From an uncultured Gammaproteobacteria bacterium (GTDB taxonomy: Bacteria > Patescibacteriota > Microgenomatia > UBA10105 > UBA927), in assembly GCA_964445435.1 (NCBI GenBank), contig CAYUKU010000001.1, positions 44,384 to 108,383 of the forward strand: DNA of 64,000 nucleotides. The letters are read 5' to 3'. The notes beneath the pieces were generated by a model. The model saw nothing but the letters and a program-made list of their open reading frames with translations, was not told the origin of the DNA and made no database searches. Below are positions 3,401 through 64,000 of the stretch, one piece after another. The position numbers were made by a program, and so were the translations under genes. Every line of letters starts with the position of its first letter. The stretch's first letter is position 1.

Positions 3401-3401
3401 G

Positions 3402-3473
3402 TGGGCCCGCTTGGTGACGATCCAAGCGCCCCCATGTTATAAGCATGGTGCTCTACCGCTGAGCTACGGGCCC
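3402..3473 (-). tRNA. tRNA with anticodon UAU (tRNA-Ile, AUA-reading), 72 nt
   Basis: The reverse complement folds as a canonical cloverleaf. Acceptor GGGCCCG/CGGGCCC, D-arm GCTC-AGCGGTA-GAGC, anticodon stem CCATG/CATGG with loop CTTATAA (T33, anticodon TAT, A37), 5-nt variable loop, T-arm CTTGG-ATCGTCA-CCAAG, discriminator A, no encoded CCA. Confidence 0.75.
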
Positions 3474-8512: not shown

Positions 8513-10501
8513 TCATGAACCGTATGCAAATATGACGCCGTACATGGGCATAATCGTCGTTGCGGTTACCGTTTTTTTGTGTTTTTTGGTTTGCTTTTTG
8601 TTTGCCCCCGCTTTTGTCGTCTGCATACCCTGTTCCCGAATCATGGAAAGATGCCAGATAATCGCAAGAAGCAACCATTGGCCAAATTCCCGCTGTATAA
8701 GCCCTTCTGGGTGCCTTTCTCTTACGCGTGCAAGGAGACCAACTTCCTTCATGTTCTTCCCCTCTGTCCGCATATCCCCAGGCGCGGCGAGAAACGACTC
8801 GAGAGACTCCAATGTCGCGTGATAGCTCATAAGTTTCAATGTCATCCAGAGAGCAAGCGCAAGAGAAAATCGAGATATCTCATACCGCTCCCGTTTAATC
8901 GGCTCTGGTAAAAACGCACCCTCAGAAACATCCGGCGCACTGACAAGACGTTGCGTTTCTCCAAAAAGCATCACAAGAGACTGTTCTACTCGTTTCTTCT
9001 CACGAGCAATCGCTTCTTTCTGATCCTTTACCGGAAGCGCGTCTATACCTTCCAAAAATCTGATGGACCGGACAAATGTCTGCACGTCTACACTCTCTGA
9101 TACCTCAACCAGTTTGGGATTCGTTTCTGCTTCCGGCTGTTTACGTATTCCTTCACTCATCATCATAAAAAACAAGTCGAAAACATGTGCGCCAACCTGG
9201 TCCGTTTCGTTTGCGTTACCCTTTGACGTTACTGCATCCTTCCCTCCAAGCCTTTCCTCTGCGGGCATCAGAAACACACCTTCGCCCAACAATCCTTCAT
9301 GCGGCGTCAAAGTGAAGGTGTCTAGCGCGAAAAGGGCTGCGGGAACCCCGACACTTGAAGACTCTTGAACCAGTGCCGTGGCGAGGCTACGTATCTCATT
9401 GGCTTCTTCAAACGTTTCCCACATCTCCCGCACCTCAATATATAAGTGTTCTGATTGTTCTTCTGAAACTCCCAGGACATCTCGTACCGTTTGCGTCCAA
9501 ACTTCTACCTTTTCCGGCTCCGTAAGAAGAGAAAATCCGGGAGAAGCAGGTTCCGTGGTGATTGCGAGCATAACCGTCAGGTTTCCCTTGTGGATCACAT
9601 CTTCCAAGTTTCTGGTGTACGTTGGAGCTTCGTATGACACACTTGACTCCTCAACGATCTCTGGAGCGTGCTGCCGTTTCATATAGTCAACAACGCCGAC
9701 AATCGTCTCCCGCGTGTCATCCACAATGTTGTATGCCACCACTTCTGCTGTCTCGGAAGAAAGTGCGATAACCCCATATACGGCTGCCGCTAATCCTTCG
9801 CGGACATCATCCTCTGCTATCATATGATCTAGCGCTATAGACGCCATTTCCGCAACCTGTCGTTCACGCTCCCTTAAGATGAGCGGGAAAACCGATACAT
9901 CCCGAGATAGGCGCGCTAGATACTCCGCTCCCTCGTCCGTTGCAGCGACGGTTTCTTTGGCTTCTTGGAGAATCTCCTCTGGAGTAACGGTCCGGAAGAA
10001 AAGAAGCGGCTTTTCGAAATTATCGCTTTCAGATACGTCGGCACCGCCTTTCACGCCGAGTCCCCGAAAAAAATCACCAAGAGTTTCATCGTTTCCGTGA
10101 AATTCAACCGCAAGCGCCTGAATCGTGTTCCCTTCGCCCCTGCTGTAGAGATATATATAATTTCTTCCGTATCCCAAATCCGGACTTGCAACTGCAGCCA
10201 TCTCTATGGAATCATCGTTCATCATGGCTTTCTCTGCTGCCAAAACACGATCAAGCCTATCAGCACCCACGTCATCGGGATCGGTCAATTCTTCGATTGT
10301 TTTTCCACCGCTGTCCGTCCATCTTCCTTCTTCATTAATCTCGTAATCGAAAGGGATAAGCGTTTGCTTGAGGATAAACTCGTGATCGTGTGCTACTGCG
10401 TCTTTCGCAAGCGCCCTGGAAACCACGTCGAGCGATCTGCCGTTATCGAGCATTTCCTCCAGATAATTTTTTTCGTTTTGCGGATTCCATTCGTGACTCA
10501 T
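8513..10501 (-). CDS. large acidic hypothetical protein (662 aa)
   Basis: Long uninterrupted ORF, co-oriented and nearly contiguous with the downstream genes. No recognisable motif. Confidence 0.4.
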   Translation of the reverse strand: MSHEWNPQNEKNYLEEMLDNGRSLDVVSRALAKDAVAHDHEFILKQTLIPFDYEINEEGRWTDSGGKTIEELTDPDDVGADRLDRVLAAEKAMMNDDSIEMAAVASPDLGYGRNYIYLYSRGEGNTIQALAVEFHGNDETLGDFFRGLGVKGGADVSESDNFEKPLLFFRTVTPEEILQEAKETVAATDEGAEYLARLSRDVSVFPLILRERERQVAEMASIALDHMIAEDDVREGLAAAVYGVIALSSETAEVVAYNIVDDTRETIVGVVDYMKRQHAPEIVEESSVSYEAPTYTRNLEDVIHKGNLTVMLAITTEPASPGFSLLTEPEKVEVWTQTVRDVLGVSEEQSEHLYIEVREMWETFEEANEIRSLATALVQESSSVGVPAALFALDTFTLTPHEGLLGEGVFLMPAEERLGGKDAVTSKGNANETDQVGAHVFDLFFMMMSEGIRKQPEAETNPKLVEVSESVDVQTFVRSIRFLEGIDALPVKDQKEAIAREKKRVEQSLVMLFGETQRLVSAPDVSEGAFLPEPIKRERYEISRFSLALALWMTLKLMSYHATLESLESFLAAPGDMRTEGKNMKEVGLLARVRERHPEGLIQREFGQWLLLAIIWHLSMIREQGMQTTKAGANKKQTKKHKKTVTATTIMPMYGVIFAYGS

Positions 10502-10523: not shown

Positions 10524-10640
10524 AGTTGGCTTTGGCCTCTCCTTTGACTCGAAGGATACGCGTATCTGAAACCTGCGACCGGACTATCACCGTTGCGGTA
10601 CAGTTCCCGAGTTTCACGGGATTCGGAGTTTCGGATATGA

Positions 10641-55109: not shown

Positions 55110-55721
55110 TCACACCTGCGTTCGCTTGACCATGATGGTTGGAACACGAATAGTAAAACCACTTTCTTCCGGACTAATGTATATGGTTTCATATTTTTCC
55201 TGCAATTTCTCCCGAAGCTTTTCCAGATATACGTCTTTTTTTAGTTTTCTGCCTCCCGTCTGGTGTGCCCAAAAAAGAGCCATAGCATCGCTCCCGTCAC
55301 CTGCTTGTATCGTAAACGGCAGATGTATTTTTTGCGCGTATGCTTCTATCTCATGGATAAATGCCTGAACACTTTGGTTTTTCGCATGAAACAGTCTGTC
55401 CCTGTACATGAGTGAGAATGGATAATATCTCGTTATAAAACTCCAAAATCGGTCGTGGATAGTCATGATGACCAGAACAATTATTACCCGTATGCCTTTG
55501 TTAAAGTCCGAACGTCTTATTTCAACATTTCTTGGCACATGGACGAGCTTGTAAATATACCGAGCAAATGGTTTTGGCAAAAATAGGATAAGATATACAC
55601 CGAAAAGAAGGAGAAACAGAAAAAATAATCCTATCGTAATATGAAGTAATTCAAGGAATTTGAGAAACAGAAAAAACGCTACTACTGAACCCAAAACTAT
55701 ATACTGTGTTTTTACGCTCAT
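55110..55721 (-). CDS. membrane protein, unknown function
   Basis: Two N-terminal TM helices plus a soluble C-terminal domain. Confidence 0.4.
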   Translation of the reverse strand: MSVKTQYIVLGSVVAFFLFLKFLELLHITIGLFFLFLLLFGVYLILFLPKPFARYIYKLVHVPRNVEIRRSDFNKGIRVIIVLVIMTIHDRFWSFITRYYPFSLMYRDRLFHAKNQSVQAFIHEIEAYAQKIHLPFTIQAGDGSDAMALFWAHQTGGRKLKKDVYLEKLREKLQEKYETIYISPEESGFTIRVPTIMVKRTQV

Positions 55722-55992: not shown

Positions 55993-56148
55993 TTAAACCT
56001 TAACCTTAATAAGATCCCTAATACGACGTTCAACCACGCTCTTATACAAATATTGATACGCAGTCACTACATTTTCCATAAGTTGTTCTTTTTGTTCAGA
56101 AGTAGCCGTATCAAGATTTGTTGTAACACTAATTTTCCGTTTACTTCT
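55993..56148 (-). CDS. small ORF (about 52 aa) translationally coupled to the upstream nuclease gene
   Basis: MRSKRKISVTTNLDTATSEQKEQLMENVVTAYQYLYKSVVERRIRDLIKVKV. Its start overlaps the nuclease stop by 8 nt. Confidence 0.3.
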   Translation of the reverse strand, partial: RSKRKISVTTNLDTATSEQKEQLMENVVTAYQYLYKSVVERRIRDLIKVKV

Positions 56149-56896
56149 CATATTGCCTAACAGCACTGCGATATTTACAGAAGTCACAGTCTTCCCCTGA
56201 TTCAGGTATGCCGTCACTTTTCAAACATTCAATGGCTTTGAGAATAGTTCCCTCAACCCAATCTGTATTGCCTTTATAGGGAATGAGTTTGATATCAAAT
56301 TCCAATTTGGCGTCAAAGGCCTCTTTGTCGGTATTGCCATTGCAGTAGACGAAATAGCCAGTATCAGACACTTTGAAGCCGTTTTCTCTAAATAGCCATT
56401 GGTATATTTCCATCTGACGTTTGTATCCATCCTGCCACTCGGCATCTAGGGTTACTTCTTCATCTTTGGATGTAGCCTTGTAGTCAACCACGATATATTC
56501 TCTCGATGGCGTCACCCACATATCATCCACACCACCCGTGATAACAACGTTCGTGTTATCCACTCGGACAGTTATACCGCCCCGTAGTGAATCCCGCCAT
56601 TCGTCGATCTTTTCGTGGGCTAGTGGTATAGCGTCGATGCCGTACTTCTCCATTAATGGATGTCTGGTGCCTTTGGCCCGATGAATATCAAACTCTTTTT
56701 TCAGGAGTTTATCGACGGCAGAGTTAAGGGAAAAAGGGTATCCAGGCGGTTGGGCCACACCAAGTCTACGATCCAGATAAAAACAACGGGGACATGTAAT
56801 AAAATTGTTAATTTTTCCACGACTCAAACGAAACAACTCACTAGAGTTTGGATCGTAAATATTTCTTGTTCGGTTTGGATTGTAATACTGGCTCAT
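56141..56896 (-). CDS. Cas4/RecB-like PD-(D/E)xK nuclease with Cys cluster
   Basis: N-terminal CPRCFY and C-terminal C-x12-CDFC cysteines. Core D...VVDYKATSK (D-x-K) nuclease motif. Confidence 0.55.
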   Translation of the reverse strand: MSQYYNPNRTRNIYDPNSSELFRLSRGKINNFITCPRCFYLDRRLGVAQPPGYPFSLNSAVDKLLKKEFDIHRAKGTRHPLMEKYGIDAIPLAHEKIDEWRDSLRGGITVRVDNTNVVITGGVDDMWVTPSREYIVVDYKATSKDEEVTLDAEWQDGYKRQMEIYQWLFRENGFKVSDTGYFVYCNGNTDKEAFDAKLEFDIKLIPYKGNTDWVEGTILKAIECLKSDGIPESGEDCDFCKYRSAVRQYEK

Positions 56897-59379
56897 TGTT
56901 TGTTTACTTTATTACTTATGATTTTTTGCACCAATCGTAAATCCTCGTCGTTATAAAGCCTAAATCTCACAGATTGATACTGGTTATCTCGTACCAATAC
57001 TGAATCTGGATGTGACAACCCATTTTTTAATTGTTCTACTATTTCGGGGGTAGATGAGCCGAGTTCGCCATATACCCAATGATTTGCGTAATAGTAAAAC
57101 AACAACAATTCTTCACCCCGTTTAATACTGTGATACGAACCAGCTCCACCTTTTGAAATGTACACATCGCCGTCAGGGAACTCTTCATCAACCCACTGAG
57201 GAATAGACGTAACAGCTTTTTTGACAAATTCGTCTTTCACTCTGGCAATTGTTTCATCTTCTGTTTCTGGTGGTTTAGTTACGCTTACCTTAACCTCCTC
57301 CTCGTTATCGTCATCACCCTTTACGCCCCGCAACACCTGGGCAAACCATTCAATCGCCGCTTCCGCTTCTCGTTGCAATACAAAGTTAATTTCTTTGATG
57401 TGTTTAACCGCATTACGGAAATCTTTTAGAGTTATAAATCGTTTCTCTGTTTCGTACTTAGAGCCAAAGAATATTTCGAAGTGTTCCCAGTTTTTGAGAA
57501 TGATATTGGAATAATCCATGACGTCGCATTGACACAAACGATCATATGCATCCAGTTTCTCCTCAACAACATAGGGGTTCTTACGCAGGTATTCTGCTAG
57601 TTTTACTTTTACTTTCCCTTGAATATCTCCTGGCACTACCTGATTCCAATAATCTTTGCCAATTTTTTCGGACAATTGACTATTGATAAGTAAACGCAGT
57701 TTTAATTCAATGTCGTCTAAAGCTTTATTTGCATTTACGCCAAGGATCTGGATAATCTTTGATCCCGTTAGTCTTTCAAACTCTCGCTTGATAGCTTCTG
57801 CACGCTCTTTGATAAACAATTTATAGTTATCTTCTTTAATGGCATCACCGTAGTTGATTAAATGCGTTTCCAGTGTGTCATTAAATTCAGGATTTTCATT
57901 TTGATAATGGGCGAAATAATCGCTAGGTTTTTGATCTAATATTTCCTTATTCAATTCAGCAGGGATAAAGCAAAAGTTGGCTATTAAATTTTCCCCACCA
58001 ATCCTGTTTTTTGAGAGAAAACGCCTCGGGAAGATATGATGTTTTTCTGGACTATTAAAGCTTGAGTAGAAATGTCGATCCATTGGAATAAGTCCATTGG
58101 TTTTGAAATGCCTTGGGTTTCTACGGGCCAACATACAGAAGATAGCATTTCTAAGCGCAGATTTTGTACCAATTGTGGCAGTGGCAATCTTTTCCTCATC
58201 CGCCGTAATAGCAAAGTTTATCTTCACATCTTTGCCATTTAGGAGCTTATCGAATATTTCCCGACGATCTTCTCCCATCTTGCTTTCCATAGCTGCTGTG
58301 TATCGCTCGCTTAAAGATGATTTCCAAAACCACTCATGTACCACATCTGTCATCTCTTTACTTAATGCCCGCCCATCCGTCTTGAAATACAGATAGGCCA
58401 ATAGCGGAATGAATGACGGGTATGGAGTAAATTCAAAGATTTTAACCCCTAGATTGGCCGACAAATGCTCAACCGCCAACTCAATCGCATTAGCAATCTC
58501 ATTCCAATTCTCCTTTATTTCCTCTTTTTTTAGCTGTAATTGATATATCTTGCTACAAAACCCTTTGAGAATGAGCGAAATGGCGTGTGTAACTACTTCT
58601 GGGCTAATATCTCCAAAACCTTTCGATGCAATCCTTTCCCGCAATTGGTTGTAATTCTCCTTTAGATCAAAATCTTCACCCCATGTACTAGCTACCACCA
58701 AATCGAACAACGACAATTTCTTACCACCCTGGTTGATGCGTTCAAATATGACGCTAGCATTGTTGAGTTCGACGTTATAGACAGTTACCACACTAAGGGG
58801 GTAAGTGGTGAATATCCGATGACACTCCATGAACACTTCCTGCCGTTCGGGTGACAGTTTGCGAAACATCTGCATGTGATCTTCACCCAAGACTTTGTAT
58901 AGAGGAATATATCTATCGCTTTCCCGCTTCACCTCAAAGACTGATTGGTTGCCATTATCATCAGGCTCTTTTTTGTAGTAATCCAAGTCTAAGCAGATTT
59001 GCGAACAGTCAACCAATTTTGTTTTATTGCCATCCTTAAACTCAACCCGAACACCATGCCAGGCGGCATAGAGTGAACAAATACGTTGTTGGCCGTCTAG
59101 GATGAATTTCAATTTTTCATCCTCTCTTGGTTTAGGTGGTGTTATTCCAAGTTCAGGTAGATCCCGATAAAACAGATTGTATTTGCCCGTTGTTTCCCAA
59201 AGAAAAAAACTACCAATCGGATACTCTTTGTAAATGCTATCCAACAAGGCCACAATTTTGCTTCGTTCCCACACAAAGTCCCGTTGAAATCGGGGAACAC
59301 GAAGAGTTCCTTCTTTTAGGTAAGTAAGTAGGGAAATGATTTGTTTGTTTCCCTCTGATTCAATTTTTGGTAGCTTCAT
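56893..59379 (-). CDS. GmrSD-like DUF262 (ParB/Srx-fold, DGQQR) + DUF1524 (His-Me finger) protein with C-terminal HEPN-like and unknown domains
   Basis: N-terminus VPRFQRDFVWERSKIVALLDSIYKEYPIGSFFLWE ... ILDGQQR. Middle EKHHIFPRRFL...NLIANFCFIPAELNKEI (DUF1524). Later Rx4H motif FRNAVKHI. The final about 130 aa is aromatic-rich (LLLFYYYANHWVYGE). Confidence 0.65.
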   Translation of the reverse strand: MKLPKIESEGNKQIISLLTYLKEGTLRVPRFQRDFVWERSKIVALLDSIYKEYPIGSFFLWETTGKYNLFYRDLPELGITPPKPREDEKLKFILDGQQRICSLYAAWHGVRVEFKDGNKTKLVDCSQICLDLDYYKKEPDDNGNQSVFEVKRESDRYIPLYKVLGEDHMQMFRKLSPERQEVFMECHRIFTTYPLSVVTVYNVELNNASVIFERINQGGKKLSLFDLVVASTWGEDFDLKENYNQLRERIASKGFGDISPEVVTHAISLILKGFCSKIYQLQLKKEEIKENWNEIANAIELAVEHLSANLGVKIFEFTPYPSFIPLLAYLYFKTDGRALSKEMTDVVHEWFWKSSLSERYTAAMESKMGEDRREIFDKLLNGKDVKINFAITADEEKIATATIGTKSALRNAIFCMLARRNPRHFKTNGLIPMDRHFYSSFNSPEKHHIFPRRFLSKNRIGGENLIANFCFIPAELNKEILDQKPSDYFAHYQNENPEFNDTLETHLINYGDAIKEDNYKLFIKERAEAIKREFERLTGSKIIQILGVNANKALDDIELKLRLLINSQLSEKIGKDYWNQVVPGDIQGKVKVKLAEYLRKNPYVVEEKLDAYDRLCQCDVMDYSNIILKNWEHFEIFFGSKYETEKRFITLKDFRNAVKHIKEINFVLQREAEAAIEWFAQVLRGVKGDDDNEEEVKVSVTKPPETEDETIARVKDEFVKKAVTSIPQWVDEEFPDGDVYISKGGAGSYHSIKRGEELLLFYYYANHWVYGELGSSTPEIVEQLKNGLSHPDSVLVRDNQYQSVRFRLYNDEDLRLVQKIISNKVNKQ

Positions 59380-59382
59380 AAT

Positions 59383-62300
59383 TTATTTTTCTCCCGTCCA
59401 ATCTTTTGCTAATAACTCCGCCTGTTCCAATACAATCTTGGTAGCTCCATCCTGTTTGTCTGGCGGGTAGTTATATTTCTTGAGCAACCGCTTGATATAA
59501 ACCCGTAATTTAGCTTGAATGCTTTCCTTGATCGTCCAGTCGATAGTGGTATTTTTACGGAGCATATCCACCAGCTCCCGAGCCATTGCCTTAAGGGTTT
59601 CATCACCTAGTTCTCTAATTGCGCTTTCGTTATTAGAGAGTGCGTCATAAAATGCCACTTCTTCCTCGGTTAATCCCATGCCCTTGCCTTTGTCTTTTTC
59701 GTCTTTGATCTTCTTGGCTAGTTCTAGAAGTTCTGCGATTACCTGCGCCGCTTCAATCGTCCTGTTCTGGTACTTACGAATTGTTTCCGCGAGCATTGAG
59801 GCAAATGAACGAGATTTAACCAGATTTGTTCTGGCAAAAGTTCGGAGTTCATCGTTTAAGAGTCTTTTCAGAAGTTCCAAAGCTACGTTTTTGTGCTTCA
59901 TATTTTTCACTTCTTCCAAAAACTCCTCGGAAAATATCGAAATGTCAGGAGTCTTGATCCCAGCTGCAGAATAGATATCTATCACCGCGTCCGATGTCAC
60001 CGCCGAAGATACTATCTGTTTAATCGCTACGTCATACTCTTCATCAGTTGGCCCTCCGGAACGTGCTTCCATTTTCAGAATCGCGCCCCGTACAATCTGG
60101 AAAAATCCTACTTCATCTCTAATCTCAATTGCTTTCTCATGGGGAACGGCTAGTGAAAATGCCTTCGATAATTCTGATACCGCCGCAAGATACCGTTTTT
60201 TGCCATCAGGAAGCCCCAAGATAAAATCAGTTGCGCCAGAAATTGTTTGCGTGCGTAAAGAGGCAGCAGAGCTAAAGTAGTTTTGGTAGCCAAACCCGTG
60301 ATACATTCCCCGAACCACTTCGTATTTTTCGAGCATTACCGATACCGCCTCGTCTTGAGGAATAGCTGTTTCCTGTCTATCGGATTCCGAATAATAAGAT
60401 AGAGCCTCCTTTAATTCAGGCGCAATGCCGATGTAGTCAACGATAAGTCCGCCTTGTTTGTCCTTATAGACACGATTGACGCGAGCAATAGCTTGCATCA
60501 AACCATGCCCCTGCATGGGTTTGTCTATGTACATCGTATGCAAGGACGGCACGTCAAAACCCGTCAGCCACATATCCCGCACAATAACTAGTTTCAGGGA
60601 ATCGTCGGGATCTTTCATTCGTCTAGCCATTTCATCTAATGCATGTTTGGCCCGAATGTGGGGTTGATACTCCTCTGGATCAGCCGCCGATCCTGTCATC
60701 ACAACTTTCAAAAATCCTTTGTTGTCATCTCCCTCATGCCAGTTTGGCCGAAGTTTTATGATTGCGTTGTATAGTTCCACCGCAATCCTACGGCTCATCG
60801 CCACGATCATGCCTTTGCCATCAATGGCAGAGAGTCTATTTTCAAAATGATCCACCACGTCACGGGCAATAAGAGCAATGCGTTTTTCCGATCCCACCAT
60901 TGCCTCGAGCCTTGCCCACTTACTCTTCAATTTTTCCTTGCGCTCAACTTCTTCACCCTCGGTTAGTTCTTCAAATTCGGGATCAATCTTGGGCTGTTCT
61001 TCTTTCTTTAGTTCAATACGGGCTAGTCTGGCCTCGTAGTAGATCGGTACTGTGGCATGATCTTCAACCGCACGGGTAACATCGTATACATCGACATATT
61101 CACCAAATACCGCCCGTGTGTTTCGATCTGTCAGCTCGACAGGAGTGCCAGTAAAACCGATAAAGGAGGCATTGGGGAGAGCAGAGCGCATGTGTTTGGC
61201 AAAGCCATGAATAAATTCATACTGGCTCCGATGGGCTTCGTCGGCAATAACCACAATGTTTTTTCGATCAGACAGCATCGGATATTCCGTGTGTCCATTT
61301 TGAGGTAAGAATTTTTGAATAGTCGTAAATATCACCCCACCCGATGCCACCCGTAACAACTCTTGTAACTCTTCTCGGTTCTCTGCCTGTTTAGGAGTTT
61401 GCCGTAAGAGTTCATGACAACGAGAAAAGATGCCAAACAGTTGGTTGTCCAAGTCGTTGCGATCGGTTAAGACGACGAGAGTCGGGTTGTTGAGAGTTTG
61501 GATGATTTTACCCGCATAAAACGTCATGGTTAGGCTCTTTCCCGATCCTTGCGTATGCCAAACTACACCCGCTCGTCTGTCTCCCTCTTCCTGTGTCGCC
61601 TTAATCGTGCTTTCAATGGCCTTATTGGTAGCAAAATATTGGTGATACGCTGCCGCTTTTTTGATAGTATGCTCGCCATCGGTTTCAAAAACAATGAAGT
61701 TGGCGAGTAAGTCCAAGAGTCGGGTTTTATCAAAAATACCTTTTAAGAGTACCTCTAGCTGGGGTAGTGCATTGGAGGCTAGCTCTTTCCCATCTACAGT
61801 TCGCCAACGGGTAAACCATTCCAGGTTGGCCGAAAGCGTCCCCATGCGGGCCTCAATTCCGTCACTAATGATGGAAAGTTCGTTATAGGCAAACAGAGTG
61901 GGAATATCCCGTTTGTAGGTTTGGATTTGGTTAAAGGCATTTTTAACTGTGGCTTTTTCATCTCCTGGGTTTTTTAGTTCGATAACAACTACAGGTAACC
62001 CATTCACAAACACCACCACATCGGGCCGACGATTCACATTGTTTTCAATAATGGTGTATTGGTTAACAGCCAAAAAGTCGTTATTTGCAACGTCGCCAAA
62101 GTACACCAATCGTACTTTATCACCAGCTACAGTTCCATCAGAGCGCATATATTCCACATCCACACCATCCCGCAGATAGGAATGAAAGATTTTGTTATTG
62201 ATGATCAGATTCGGGGTAGTGTGGGCCACCTGCACCACTTTCTTAAACGCCTCTTCTTTAGCATCTTGGGGAATATTGGGATTTAGTTTTTCAATAGCCG

Positions 62301-62463
62301 TAAGCAATCTGTCCTCAAGTACCACGTCGCCATAACTAGCCCGTTCGGGATGTTCGCCATCGGGAGGTGGGGCAATCTCTGGGCCACCAATAACCGAATA
62401 ACCCAACCCCTCGAGCCATTCAAGTGTTGCTAGTTCTAGATCTGTTTCTGTGTATTTAGTCAT
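59383..62463 (-). CDS. hsdR: type I restriction enzyme R subunit
   Basis: 1026 aa. N-terminal nuclease domain. SF2 helicase motifs [24 protein letters not shown] and QAIARVNR. Confidence 0.9.
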
Positions 62464-62468
62464 ATTTA

Positions 62469-63623
62469 TTAAAATGATATTTTGTCATCATCCAATTCCA
62501 CTTCAAAGGAAGTTACAACTTTTGTATCGGCAGGTTGTACCTCTTCTGTAGAATTGTTAACGATAAATTTTGCCCTTTCAAATAATTCATCAAATGTAAT
62601 AATTTCAGGGTTAGATAAATTTCTCCTGTATAACTCAAAAGTCTTTTTCTTAGAATTGGAGTCCAACTGATTACAATGGCCGATTACCAATAATCCTTTT
62701 GGGCTGCATGTGGTAATACCGCCTAATTCTTCTCTGTTTTCGTCTGTTCTTGAACCCTCAGTTTCCCATTTATTTGCGTTAACTTGGAGCTGTGATACAC
62801 CACCAACTAATTCTTTTCCAATCTCCCATGCTCCATTTCTATATTCATCATTCCCGAGTAATGCAGTACTTGGTTTTTTGATTTCTACTAATACTGTAAA
62901 TCTGCCATCAGCGGCTGTATCCATCAGATAATCTCCACGTTGATTTCCTGAACCAAATACATTGCCTCCACCGTACTGAGGCTGGGATGTTATCAAATGA
63001 AGATATTGGTATTTCAACCCTAATCCGAAAATCCACTCATTGTTCTTGAAGAAATTTTGCCAATAGGCCTCGTCCTTATCTTCTGTTAATGAATTTTCAA
63101 ATTCTCTTAAGGCTGTTCCCCGTTCAGTTTGCACCCGAGAATATGCAAGCCGTGTGGCCAAGTGTGGCTCCTTTTGTACTAACTGTTCCCAAACCTCATT
63201 TCCGTAATCCTGCTCCAATAACTTGGTAACGAAACTCTTTCTCTTTTCATCAACCCTGATAATTTCGTCCTCCTTGGCCACGACATAGCTCTGTTCTAAC
63301 CAGGGTAATTCTTGCTTTGAAATGCGATATAGATTTACGAGTGCTTCAAACAAATTTTTTAATGCCAAGCTTTTAAGCTCAAATTTAATTCCCTCGTCTT
63401 TTTTTAATTCGTTGAGTTTTACCGAAGATAAATCTTGCCATTCATCATGCGCCCCTTTTCTTTGCACGATAATATACCCCTTAAGTGTGGCCTTAGGATC
63501 TTTCGGGTTGTCTTTAATGACAACTCCTCGAAAGACTTTTCTAAAGGTACCGCTTTCTTCAATAACAACATCGTCTGTTTTTGCAACATTGCTCGACACT
63601 CTGGTTAATTGATATTGCTGCAT
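62469..63623 (-). CDS. PD-(D/E)xK nuclease, Shedu/DUF4263-like, inserted between hsdS and hsdR
   Basis: GDYLMD...[10 protein letters not shown] (D231/D235 ... E247-x-K249). C-terminal [11 protein letters not shown]. No Walker motif, so not PrrC. Confidence 0.4.
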
Positions 63624-63624
63624 A

Positions 63625-64000
63625 CTAATTTTTCACTCTTAATTTCCCACTCATTAATCTTGGTAATAGAGAATCTCGCAGTGCGCCCAATTGTTCGTTC
63701 TCATCCATTTTTGCATTGATTTCTTGATATATGGCTCCGCATATCTGATTAAATCGATCTAGAATATCCTTACTCGGTGACAATACTGACATTTGTTTTA
63801 GATGTGTTGGCCCAAAATTTGCTTGCACACTACCTGCTGATAATCGTATTTGTTCACTTAAAAATTCTTCAGATTGTAAATACTGATACATAAAGGGATA
63901 ACTTACATTATCTTGGGGCCTAAATCGAATAACGCTCGTATTAAGTAAAAGTGGTAGATGTGATTTGCGCACAATTGCATTTTTACCTAAAGTTCCCGAT
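63625..64000 (-). CDS. hsdS: type I restriction enzyme S subunit (C-terminal part; gene continues beyond window end)
   Basis: C-terminal conserved helix EQLGALRDSLLPRLMSGKLRV typical of HsdS. The ORF is open at the window edge. Confidence 0.75.
   Translation of the reverse strand, partial: SGTLGKNAIVRKSHLPLLLNTSVIRFRPQDNVSYPFMYQYLQSEEFLSEQIRLSAGSVQANFGPTHLKQMSVLSPSKDILDRFNQICGAIYQEINAKMDENEQLGALRDSLLPRLMSGKLRVKN

Follow-up and report, generated by a model that had tools for sequence, protein, structure and literature searches.

A large part of bacterial diversity belongs to the CPR/Patescibacteria, whose DNA repair and immunity are poorly understood. Several groups of characterized enzymes bear on the locus described here. 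The nucleases AddB, AdnAB, Dna2 and Exo5 carry an Fe-S cluster known as the 'iron staple'. The GmrSD-type enzymes work as single polypeptides, and no GmrSD system is known to need a Cas4-like partner. The solo-Cas4 proteins are over-represented in small-genome CPR, are mostly inherited vertically and have no known function (Hudaiberdiev et al. 2017, PMC5704561). For the Cas4-like proteins of the pfam12705 type, ancillary roles in defence or repair have been proposed (PMC5704561). The window, that is, the whole 64,000-nucleotide stretch of DNA that was analysed, encodes a 251-aa nuclease that belongs to this already known solo Cas4-like kind, at the end of a cluster of defence genes.

The nuclease, its family and the overlapping ORF

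The nuclease gene, its motifs and the short ORF that overlaps its 3' end are located as follows.

56141..56896, minus strand: solo Cas4-like (RecB-family PD-(D/E)xK) nuclease gene, 251 aa, an ORF with an ATG start
56783..56794, minus strand: N-terminal CxxC, C35-P-R-C38, first half of a predicted metal 'staple'
56522..56527, minus strand: motif II, D124-D125 (GGVDD), catalytic metal ligand, conserved in at least 95% family-wide
56477..56485, minus strand: motif III, D138-Y-K140, the (D/E)xK of VVDYKATSK
56402..56416, minus strand: RecB-type QxxxY motif, Q161-M-E-I-Y165
56225..56227, minus strand: C224, an additional Cys of the CPR clade, present in 57% of distant representatives
56177..56188, minus strand: C-terminal CxxC, C237-D-F-C240, predicted to supply the other half of the metal staple
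55993..56151, minus strand: 52-aa ORF, not regarded as a gene (singleton, without homologues)

Judged by its sequence, the 251-aa ORF is a genuine, free-standing PD-(D/E)xK nuclease gene. The Pfam model PF12705 (PDDEXK_1) matched residues 23-244 of 251 with a score of 45 bits, the cut-off being 22. Conservation among distant members was evaluated with 83 representatives that are 36-60% identical to the window nuclease. The RecB-family residues D124/D125, D138-x-K140 and Q161xxxY165 were each found in at least 95% of them (D138 in 95%, K140 in 100%, Q161 in 96% and Y165 in 98%) and are invariant in alignment A3. The PD-(D/E)xK core that an earlier note on this DNA had recognized in VVDYKATSK, at residues 136-144, is therefore confirmed by the domain match and by the conservation of the catalytic residues in homologues.

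Five Cys residues are conserved within the CPR clade and four throughout the family, the latter in a 2+2 arrangement (C35xxC38 … C237xxC240). C35 and C38 are invariant in 78 CPR sequences and occur in at least 95% of the distant representatives; C237 and C240 occur in 92-93% of these and are invariant in alignment A3. A four-Cys arrangement like that of Cas4 and AddB had also been claimed. The residues are indeed there (CPRC at 35-38 and C224-x12-C237-DF-C240) and have been kept among homologues, a point that had been named beforehand as a possible refutation, but the invariant 2+2 set resembles the pattern C...CxxCx5C without matching it.

Searches of the PDB sequences with the nuclease, both as a single sequence and as a profile, returned zero usable relatives. 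The protein gave a confident AlphaFold model with a Cas4-like three-dimensional fold, to which Cas4, Dna2, AdnA, AddB and Exo5 are the nearest; with TM values of 0.51 or less, none of the solved structures is close. In the model, C35-xx-C38 is placed where helix 26-34 meets helix 36-43, and the second CxxC opens the last helix. The N-terminal helix pair and the C-terminal helix would be stapled together by a four-Cys metal site (CxxC...CxxC). The modelled topology of the two CxxC pairs is consistent with the predicted 'iron staple'; a Zn site is equally possible.

The family is large, strongly conserved and found mainly in CPR/Patescibacteria, and is of the pfam12705 'solo Cas4-like' type. Its homologues number more than 8000, of which the best 120 are all at least 78% identical, and at least 581 species, mostly CPR, have a homologue at 65-89% identity. 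The family is rare in viral contigs, with 14 matches. An annotation search of Southlakia, a tractable saccharibacterium with Tn-seq tables, found zero stand-alone orthologues; the family is apparently absent from this organism and so is not universal in CPR. The Microgenomates form a phylogenetically coherent clade in the nuclease tree. Outside this clade the tree is flat, with some near-identical pairs across groups, for which horizontal transfer or wrongly labelled bins could be responsible. The GC content of the nuclease gene, 0.433, is 1.9 SD lower than the backbone value, and the gene is flanked on either side by low-GC DNA, so it could itself be island cargo. As a criterion for distinguishing resident from cargo genes, base composition placed the nuclease in an intermediate, ambiguous position. 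A search around the gene for the flanking direct or inverted repeats that mark mobile elements found none that were convincing.

The possibility had been raised that the 52-aa ORF, whose start overlaps the nuclease stop, encodes a small partner or regulator. The overlap exists and, from the ATG at 56151, amounts to 11 nt, but longer versions with GTG starts can be drawn (74 aa, starting at 56217, and 64 aa, starting at 56187) and nothing supports the ORF as a gene. Its MRS start is borrowed from the nuclease, whose final YEK-stop codons give these residues in a different frame. The ORF is a singleton cluster among approximately 15 billion proteins and had no match in protein-family searches. 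Furthermore, tblastn and blastn found no match in 164 loci (86 other nuclease loci and 78 GmrSD loci), and the ORF was missing 3' of all homologues examined, including the loci ordered HsdR-GmrSD-nuclease; two relatives (L093 and L094) have a different sequence at this position. No Rfam element was detected in the spacer, and a terminator scan found none separating nuclease and ORF. The 52-aa ORF can almost certainly be discounted as a gene, and since it is an unconserved singleton without a family match, a function as partner, antitoxin or regulator was rejected. The analysis thereby removes a spurious small 'partner' gene from the locus.

The defence cluster and the turnover of neighbours

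Upstream of the nuclease, the window contains the following features.

56893..56896, minus strand: 4-nt ATGA overlap of the DUF262/HEPN gene stop with the nuclease start, read from the sequence
56893..59379, minus strand: GmrSD-like protein, 828 aa, with DUF262 (GmrSD_N), an EKHHIFP...N His-Me-like motif, HEPN (RNAVKH) and a C-terminal domain
59383..62463, minus strand: Type I restriction enzyme R subunit HsdR, 1026 aa (TIGR00348, 2.8e-195; PADLOC REase_I)
62469..63623, minus strand: Shedu SduA nuclease, 384 aa, 5' of hsdR (Pfam SduA_N 5.6e-19, SduA_C 4.8e-29)
63625..64000, minus strand: 3' end of an ORF that leaves the window, probably the HsdS C-terminus (…LRDSLLPRLMSGKL), from the translation, by eye

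The order [HsdS?]-Shedu-HsdR-GmrSD/HEPN-nuclease is a low-GC defence cluster in which the nuclease is the last gene and is co-directional with the others. The Pfam SduA matches rule out an HsdS identity for the 384-aa gene that lies 5' of hsdR, and the partial ORF at the edge of the window (63625..64000) had no Pfam match. A scan for promoters and terminators around the nuclease gene yielded sites no more numerous than in shuffled sequence.

The neighbour of the nuclease had been labelled a DUF262/DUF1524 protein. The first half of this label stands, with a GmrSD_N match at 8e-29, but DUF1524 (GmrSD_C) was not detected by Pfam at E <= 0.1, and there is a weak match to HEPN_Swt1 (0.0046) besides. 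The sequence of the EKHHIFP...N motif suggests a divergent His-Me finger; this motif and the HEPN motif, both identified by eye, are kept in the homologues of loci L100, L107 and L122. PADLOC matched the protein to PDC-M55C, HEC-05 and PDC-M34B. Relative to four close relatives of the locus (L088-L091), the 828-aa gene is an indel cassette.

The surroundings of the nuclease change rapidly. The commonest neighbour cluster was found in 8 or fewer of the 80 nuclease loci, and directly 5' of nucleases that are more than 90% identical there is either GmrSD or HsdR, or else a gene for an AAA_13 ATPase or a 92-aa ORF. Upstream OLD-like genes are 22-45% identical to one another and their nucleases 66-80% (r = 0.2). 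Among the genes found upstream are those for OLD/GajA-like, GmrSD, Shedu, UvrD, HerA, SMC-like, Type III Res, HsdS, Schlafen and R-M proteins. Downstream, synteny is partly preserved in relatives. With the downstream neighbours alone as the comparator, 255 PADLOC families were matched upstream of the nuclease and 61 downstream. The upstream side is thus enriched for defence genes and the nuclease has no fixed partner; the gene stays put while the surrounding DNA changes, chiefly on its 5' side.

Proposed role of the nuclease and alternatives

The reading that we favour, with a probability of roughly 0.55, is that the protein is a free-standing DNA-end processor of the RecB/Cas4 fold that has no dedicated partner, that lies next to GmrSD facultatively, and that is followed by a 52-aa ORF that is no gene. 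We infer its substrate, polarity, metal identity and cooperation with defence enzymes. Its most likely role would be Mg/Mn-dependent processing of DNA ends, either as a 5'->3' single-strand exonuclease or by flap cleavage, as in Cas4, AddB, Dna2 and Exo5. Such an enzyme would act on DNA ends regardless of which enzyme produced them, and may resect or degrade DNA cut by the upstream restriction-type enzymes, as a RecBCD-like back end, and/or serve in repair.

It was also considered that this is purely a housekeeping nuclease of repair or recombination that flanks an integration hotspot for defence islands and is functionally unlinked to defence. Core genes flank such hotspots in Pseudomonas or E. 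coli, and the concept is established (PMC10250203, PMC10121019). The very high conservation and broad distribution of the nuclease would fit this explanation, as would its failure to co-evolve with its neighbours and the many loci where these are housekeeping genes alone (AlaRS, TGT, YceG, RpoB, FtsK, SecDF, XseA and DNA glycosylase). However, the family is not universal in CPR, variable low-GC DNA flanks the gene on both sides, and in the close relatives the nuclease is always co-directional and the last gene of the defence operon. Moreover, two paralogous nuclease subfamilies both recur beside a single GmrSD-HEPN clade. A housekeeping role unconnected with defence is judged rather unlikely.

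A more ambitious proposal, for which we hold out somewhat less hope, is that the 251-aa and 222-aa subfamilies together serve the defence islands of CPR as a common, interchangeable 'back-end' nuclease, co-transcribed with any upstream sensor, motor or cutter. The upstream partners would be Type I R-M, GmrSD-HEPN, OLD/Gabija-like proteins, Shedu and SMC-like ATPases, and the nuclease would finish the destruction of foreign DNA, as RecBCD does after restriction in E. coli. If this were true, immunity in ultra-small bacteria would have a common hub in this nuclease.

The earlier note had suggested, on account of their overlap, that the nuclease and the GmrSD-like gene form a functional pair. In its strict form, this would be a dedicated two-gene module: the GmrSD-like DUF262/HEPN protein would sense or cut modified or foreign nucleic acid, and the nuclease would be its obligate effector or partner, co-translated by way of the ATGA. 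The overlap is as claimed, the ATG of the nuclease lying on the stop of the 828-aa gene, and since no Shine-Dalgarno-like sequence precedes the nuclease, translational coupling is plausible. However, YceG, FKBP and cyclophilin genes, which are housekeeping genes, join the nuclease equally tightly in other genomes, and the 4-nt overlap is for this reason uninformative here; in compact genomes such as these, it is no evidence for partnership.

A survey of neighbours established that the two genes do occur together elsewhere; a lack of any such co-occurrence had been named beforehand as a refutation of the pair. The order GmrSD then nuclease with tight junctions was seen in L001, L085, L093, L094 and L103, and in L100 and L107 the GmrSD homologue is overlapped by a paralogous Cas4-like nuclease of 222 aa, which in L122 is encoded immediately upstream. 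A Cas4-like nuclease adjoins GmrSD in 8 of 22 non-redundant close relatives (three of the eight carry the 222-aa paralogous subfamily) and in 0 of 20 distant ones, a contrast of 36% with 0% that is confounded with taxonomy. On the other hand, the remaining 14 close relatives have no Cas4-like neighbour, including one (L097) at 88% identity, and GmrSD lies near the nuclease in just 3 of the 80 nuclease loci. In L088-L091, where HsdR is 90% and the nuclease more than 90% identical, hsdR is followed directly by the nuclease and GmrSD is absent. In L027, L098/L099, L112 and L122 the gene order is reversed.

The two proteins also differ in their conservation. The nuclease is conserved at 65-89% and its cluster at 90% identity has 22 members, while the GmrSD-like protein is a singleton at this threshold. 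Co-evolution of the partners was not observed; between the window and L100, HsdR is 73% identical, GmrSD 69% and the nuclease, which is of the other subfamily, 29%. The co-occurrence in 8 of 22 GmrSD-HEPN relatives exceeds the expectation for a pure bystander, but the pairing is a minority state from either side and near-identical operons do without GmrSD. The association is thus recurrent but facultative, and the nuclease is not a dedicated GmrSD partner; an obligate module is improbable, and 'functional pair' is weakly supported.

It is very doubtful that the gene is an exonuclease derived from a phage or mobile element, brought in on the island either as half of a lambda-Exo/RecE-like or MGE-Cas4-like recombination module or as a factor against defence, although the nuclease resembles lambda exonuclease, RecE, AFV1 ORF223 and phage PD-(D/E)XK proteins in structure, matches PHROG 31195 at 1.4e-16 and is encoded by a low-GC gene. 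Finally, a bona fide Cas4 of CRISPR adaptation was rejected as next to impossible: the Cas4 models are matched weakly (TIGR00372 at 36.5 bits, PADLOC Cas4 at 1e-9) and relatives carry the JGI annotation COG1468, but the scores miss the curated thresholds (36.5 vs 65 for TIGR00372, 14 vs 22.7 for PF01930), the Cys pattern is 2+2 where Cas4 has 1+3 (C...CxxCx5C), no Cas family, cas1 and cas2 included, is among the most frequent neighbour families of the 80 nuclease loci, and the scan for a CRISPR repeat array in the 64-kb window was negative, in agreement with the lack of CRISPR context remarked on before.

The nuclease is therefore not a CRISPR component and not a dedicated GmrSD partner, and it is the recurrent tail of fast-changing defence clusters; together, these three results narrow the hypotheses to a general role in DNA-end processing. 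With 65-89% identity across classes, it is among the most conserved non-translational proteins of CPR and is a concrete target for experiments.

Comparison with known systems

The nearest described proteins are the solo-Cas4 and pfam12705 nucleases (PMC5704561). The window nuclease is like them a stand-alone RecB-family PD-(D/E)xK protein of approximately 200-250 aa with four conserved Cys residues, and is likewise unlinked to CRISPR. It differs in that its Cys residues are arranged 2+2 rather than 1+3, that it falls below the Cas4 thresholds (PF01930, TIGR00372), and that its family is unusually conserved across CPR classes (65-89%). The published description (PMC5704561) does not include the repeated placement of the gene at the 3' ends of variable defence clusters.

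The Cas4 proteins of CRISPR adaptation (SSO0001, 4ic1; Pcal_0546, 4r5q; Cas4-Cas1, 7mi4) are 15-21% identical to the window nuclease with a TM of approximately 0.43. The window nuclease is about 40-50 residues longer, has a different Cys spacing and is not accompanied by cas1/cas2 or an array. Its neighbour resembles the Type IV enzymes of the GmrSD and BrxU type (DUF262-DUF1524) in its N-terminal DUF262 domain and in an HHxxP...N motif identified by eye, but has an additional HEPN and C-terminal domain, with DUF1524 undetected by Pfam.

The nuclease domains of AddB, AdnA-AdnB, RecB, Dna2 and Exo5 share the RecB-type fold and the QxxxY motif with the window nuclease and are DNA-end processors, as it is proposed to be. 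In those enzymes the nuclease domain is joined to a helicase motor, by fusion or in a tight complex, whereas the window nuclease is free-standing; across loci, helicases and ATPases (HsdR, UvrD, OLD and SMC-like) are often encoded directly 5' of its gene.

The nuclease gene and its surroundings

From about 55.1 kb to the end of the window all genes were found on the minus strand, and the nuclease gene stands at the end of a co-directional operon:

55110..55721, minus strand: gene for a 203-aa hydrophobic protein, orphan and low in GC, 3' of a 420-bp spacer after the nuclease gene
56151 (ATG) to 55993 (stop), minus strand: 52-aa open frame, overlapping the nuclease gene by 11 nt
56141..56896, minus strand: 251-aa nuclease ORF with an ATG start, read from the sequence
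56893..59379, minus strand: 828-aa DUF262/HEPN gene, GmrSD-like
59383..62463, minus strand: Type I HsdR, from family profile matches
62469..63623, minus strand: 384-aa Shedu SduA nuclease with the Pfam domains SduA_N and SduA_C
from 63625, minus strand: partial ORF running off the window, HsdS-like by eye at its C-terminus and with no Pfam match

Shedu SduA thus lies inside a Type I restriction-modification (R-M) operon, between the end of the HsdS-like ORF and hsdR. At L088, one of the loci (L handles) from other genomes or metagenomes compared with the window, HsdR is 90% identical and an AAA_15 ATPase fills the slot held by Shedu, indicating that the hsdS-hsdR junction is itself a variable site for embedded defence genes. 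The hsdR gene, intact in the window, was split in L081 (501..3581; 524 and 490 aa), essentially the same sequence from another assembly; likewise it was split in L089 (2918..5997; 511 and 505 aa) and intact in L088 (2917..5997), again in essentially the same sequence. The restriction subunit could thus be frameshifted or phase-variable within the population, or the splits could stem from assembly error. Elsewhere in the window, a tRNA-Ile with anticodon TAT (UAU) was found at 3401..3473 (minus strand); this anticodon is uncommon in bacteria, where AUA is usually read by a lysidine-modified CAU tRNA. An AdoCbl-II (cobalamin) riboswitch at 10570..10637 (minus strand), upstream of a 662-aa gene (8513..10501), scored 37.5, just above the Rfam gathering score of 36.5.

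The GmrSD-like protein, encoded also in L100 (3986..6472), L107 (4001..6427) and L122 (3947..6304), has an unusual architecture consisting of DUF262, a conserved EKHHIFP...N motif (His-Me-like), a HEPN domain and, at the C-terminus, a domain of some 160 aa. DUF1524 was not detected by Pfam. The HEPN motif is R-N-[AS]-[VI]-x-H, with a weak Swt1-like match and PADLOC family PDC-M34B, and the PADLOC systems matched by the protein are candidate systems only (PDC-M55C, HEC-05). The gene often follows hsdR (L093, L095, L100, L123, L132).

The sequence features claimed for the 251-aa ORF are present: CPRC at residues 35-38, VVDYKATSK at 136-144 and C224-x12-C237-D-F-C240. The protein passed Pfam PDDEXK_1 (45 bits, cut-off 22). 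Both Cas4 family models failed, PF01930 scoring 14 against 22.7 and TIGR00372 36.5 against 65. A PDB sequence search detected no entry apart from a marginal profile match to Cas4 SSO0001 (E = 0.096). The AlphaFold2 model, calculated from an 85-sequence alignment, was confident (pLDDT 93.8, pTM 0.90) and has a RecB/Cas4 fold. On the basis of the family scores, the PDB search and the model, the protein is assigned to the RecB/Cas4 clade of nucleases that process DNA ends, in a distinct subfamily without a solved representative.

The catalytic motifs are intact: D124/D125, D138-x-K140 and Q161xxxY165 were kept in at least 95% of 78 CPR sequences and again of 83 distant representatives (36-60% identity). 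C35, C38, C237 and C240 are invariant family-wide, whereas C224 is conserved in the CPR clade only (97% there, 57% family-wide), giving a 2+2 ligand set, CxxC...CxxC. In Cas4, AddB, Dna2 and Exo5, by contrast, the pattern is 1+3 (C...CxxCx5C). In the model, one CxxC pair lies where the first two helices meet and the other where the last helix begins. This topology matches that of the "iron staple", and the predicted metal may be Fe-S or Zn alike.

Neighbours of the nuclease and the GmrSD-like gene

The immediate upstream neighbours of the nuclease were enriched for defence-island proteins. OLD/GajA-like ATPase-TOPRIM proteins occurred in 6-8 loci, and the list further includes Shedu, GmrSD, UvrD, HerA, SMC-like ATPases, Type III Res, HsdS, a TaqI-like methyltransferase and Schlafen; in L027, UvrD with OLD forms a Gabija-like pair. 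The PADLOC families matched numbered 255 upstream and 61 downstream, the baseline being the downstream neighbours rather than a genome-wide background, and among the 27 upstream genes that are co-directional and no more than 16 nt away, about 17 were R-M or defence-like. The OLD-like genes were 22-45% identical to one another and their nucleases 66-80% (r = 0.2), indicating that the former were acquired independently.

Many loci had housekeeping neighbours only (AlaRS, TGT, RpoB, FtsK, SecDF, XseA). The possibility was considered that the protein is purely a housekeeping nuclease located at a hotspot. This is consistent with those loci, less so with the DNA right beside the nuclease, which is variable and low in GC (203-aa ORF 0.389, nuclease 0.433, GmrSD 0.396; backbone 0.482 +/- 0.027); it is conceivable but rather unlikely. 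Downstream, scattered synteny with relatives remains: L088/L089 share the glyoxalase, L004 a 178-aa protein and L092 a 110-aa protein. In the closest relatives the nuclease is followed after 3-7 nt, or overlapped, by a trypsin-like (Trypsin_2) peptidase of 425-431 aa (L001 3184..4479; L093 7256..8551; L082 6753..8042; L087 6759..8036; also L006, L010 and L016), which in PADLOC weakly resembles the protease portions of RT-Protease and LmuA. The window has the spacer and the orphan gene instead.

A second alternative is a dedicated module of GmrSD and nuclease, the functional pair that the earlier note had proposed from their overlap. The 4-nt ATGA, where the nuclease start overlaps the stop of the 828-aa gene, is present. 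However, junctions with the nuclease are just as tight for YceG, FKBP, a cyclophilin-SNase fusion and a DnaB_C protein, indicating that close coupling is a feature of compact CPR genomes and no evidence of partnership. The nuclease has no fixed partner: a relative of the window's GmrSD-like protein was found within 6 kb in 3 of the 80 genome loci (L001, L013, L027), and no neighbour gene cluster in more than 8 of them. Among nucleases 91-93% identical, the upstream gene was GmrSD (L085) or an AAA_13 ATPase placed behind an MmeI-like enzyme (L082-L084, L087); L092, in the nuclease's own 90% cluster, has GmrSD plus a 92-aa ORF. In L088-L091, HsdM/S-AAA_15-HsdR is followed directly, after a 3-nt gap, by the nuclease without GmrSD. 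As this HsdR is 90.4% identical to that of the window, the 2.5-kb GmrSD/HEPN gene is an indel cassette in an otherwise orthologous operon.

In the opposite direction, the 828-aa protein was used to scan metagenomes; with at least 750 bp required on both sides, a Cas4-like nuclease was adjacent in 11 of 26 loci with close relatives (>= 40% identity), or 8 of 22 when non-redundant, and in 0 of 20 with distant DUF262 relatives (< 40%), a contrast of 36% vs 0% that is confounded with taxonomy. The 251-aa type lay downstream of GmrSD in L093, L094 and L103 and upstream in L098/L099 and L112. The association is recurrent but facultative in both directions: the pair does recur as neighbours elsewhere, but in a minority of loci from either side, and a dedicated module is improbable. 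The compact locus L027 (119..7477, Amesbacteria) carries the nuclease mid-cluster among co-directional defence genes, in the order OLD-like ATPase, UvrD-like helicase, Cas4-like nuclease, 140-aa ORF and a homologue of GmrSD-HEPN that shares 56% identity with that of the window.

A second, 222-aa nuclease subfamily is 26-33% identical to the window nuclease and shares the signature CPRCFW...DYK...QxxxY...CxFC. It is large, occurs in CPR, Omnitrophota and Margulisbacteria, and shows high conservation (55-87%) among them (L100 6469..7137; L107 6424..7095; L122 3301..3966; also P0406-P0525, listed with this subfamily). In L100 and L107 its gene shares 4 nt with GmrSD, and in L122 it is found just upstream; its contexts without GmrSD are housekeeping/repair or adjoining R-M genes. 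The order HsdR (73%)-GmrSD (69%)-nuclease is kept in L100. Directly after GmrSD-HEPN, the 251-aa type can give way to the 222-aa type.

The 52-aa open frame

This ORF, suggested previously to be a small partner or regulator, is very probably non-coding. No family match was found in any library searched, and no tblastn or blastn match in 164 related loci. Two longer forms start at GTG codons, one at 56217 (74 aa) and one at 56187 (64 aa), the latter called by a gene finder. Clustering of about 15 billion proteins left the 64-aa form a singleton, whereas the nuclease cluster has 22 members. L093, with the same HsdR-GmrSD-nuclease order, has the trypsin-like peptidase starting 4 nt after the nuclease, and L094 an unrelated 51-aa ORF, also beginning MRSR. 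The shared MRS arises because the conserved last codons of the nuclease (TAT GAG AAG TAA, Y-E-K-stop) read ATG AGA AGT one base later, and the "basic N-terminus" is thus mostly a side effect of the nuclease reading frame.

Distribution and proposed role

The nuclease is strongly conserved. The best 120 of more than 8000 matches were each at least 78% identical, and 50% clustering collapsed the family to 306 representatives at E <= 1e-30. A genome scan confirmed it in at least 581 species, the best 80 of which were almost all Patescibacteria/CPR MAGs (65-89% identity), the closest among the matches listed being a Woykebacteria MAG; the window thus probably derives from a CPR bacterium of the Microgenomates group. 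Microgenomates nucleases cluster coherently (77% identity within vs 68% between groups); outside them the tree is flat, with a few near-identical pairs across groups. For the saccharibacterium Southlakia the annotation table lists a UvrD-PDDEXK_1 fusion and nothing else of this kind; not all CPR, therefore, carry the stand-alone gene. Record titles supplied the taxon labels, and errors are possible for some of the bins labelled "Gammaproteobacteria" or "Saccharibacteria"; ORF calling was mechanical and used table 11, and the genetic code differs in a few Gracilibacteria loci. Many nucleases of L002-L068, binchicken MAGs titled "uncultured Gammaproteobacteria", were 66-84% identical to that of the window. 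Ranked by identity, they are interspersed with records from Microgenomates and Parcubacteria, and the taxon names given to these bins look unreliable.

An exonuclease derived from a mobile element is very improbable. Only 14 relatives of the nuclease occur in 2.9 million viral contigs. CPR carry an excess of solo-Cas4 genes, mostly inherited vertically and with an uncharacterised "defence or repair" function, and pfam12705-type Cas4-like proteins are not CRISPR-associated (Hudaiberdiev et al. 2017, PMC5704561); a Cas4 of a CRISPR system, for all the likeness in fold, is scarcely credible here.

The preferred reading, to which a probability of roughly 55% is assigned, combines repair and defence in one end-processing nuclease. 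Judging from Cas4, AddB, Dna2 and Exo5, it would be a metal-dependent 5'->3' single-strand exonuclease or end-trimming enzyme, with the Cys-metal site as a structural staple as in its nearest structural relatives. Its contexts suggest action on DNA ends whichever enzyme made them, so that it could serve repair and also complete the destruction of DNA that the upstream HsdR, Shedu and GmrSD enzymes have cut.

The solo Cas4-like nucleases of CPR, to which the protein belongs, are a kind already noted but uncharacterised. Four points extend the published picture: cysteines arranged 2+2, an extreme degree of conservation, the repeated placement of the gene at the tail of defence clusters that vary, and the exchange of two paralogous subfamilies in one slot. 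RecBCD acts after restriction in E. coli, and an analogous role is proposed for the window nuclease.
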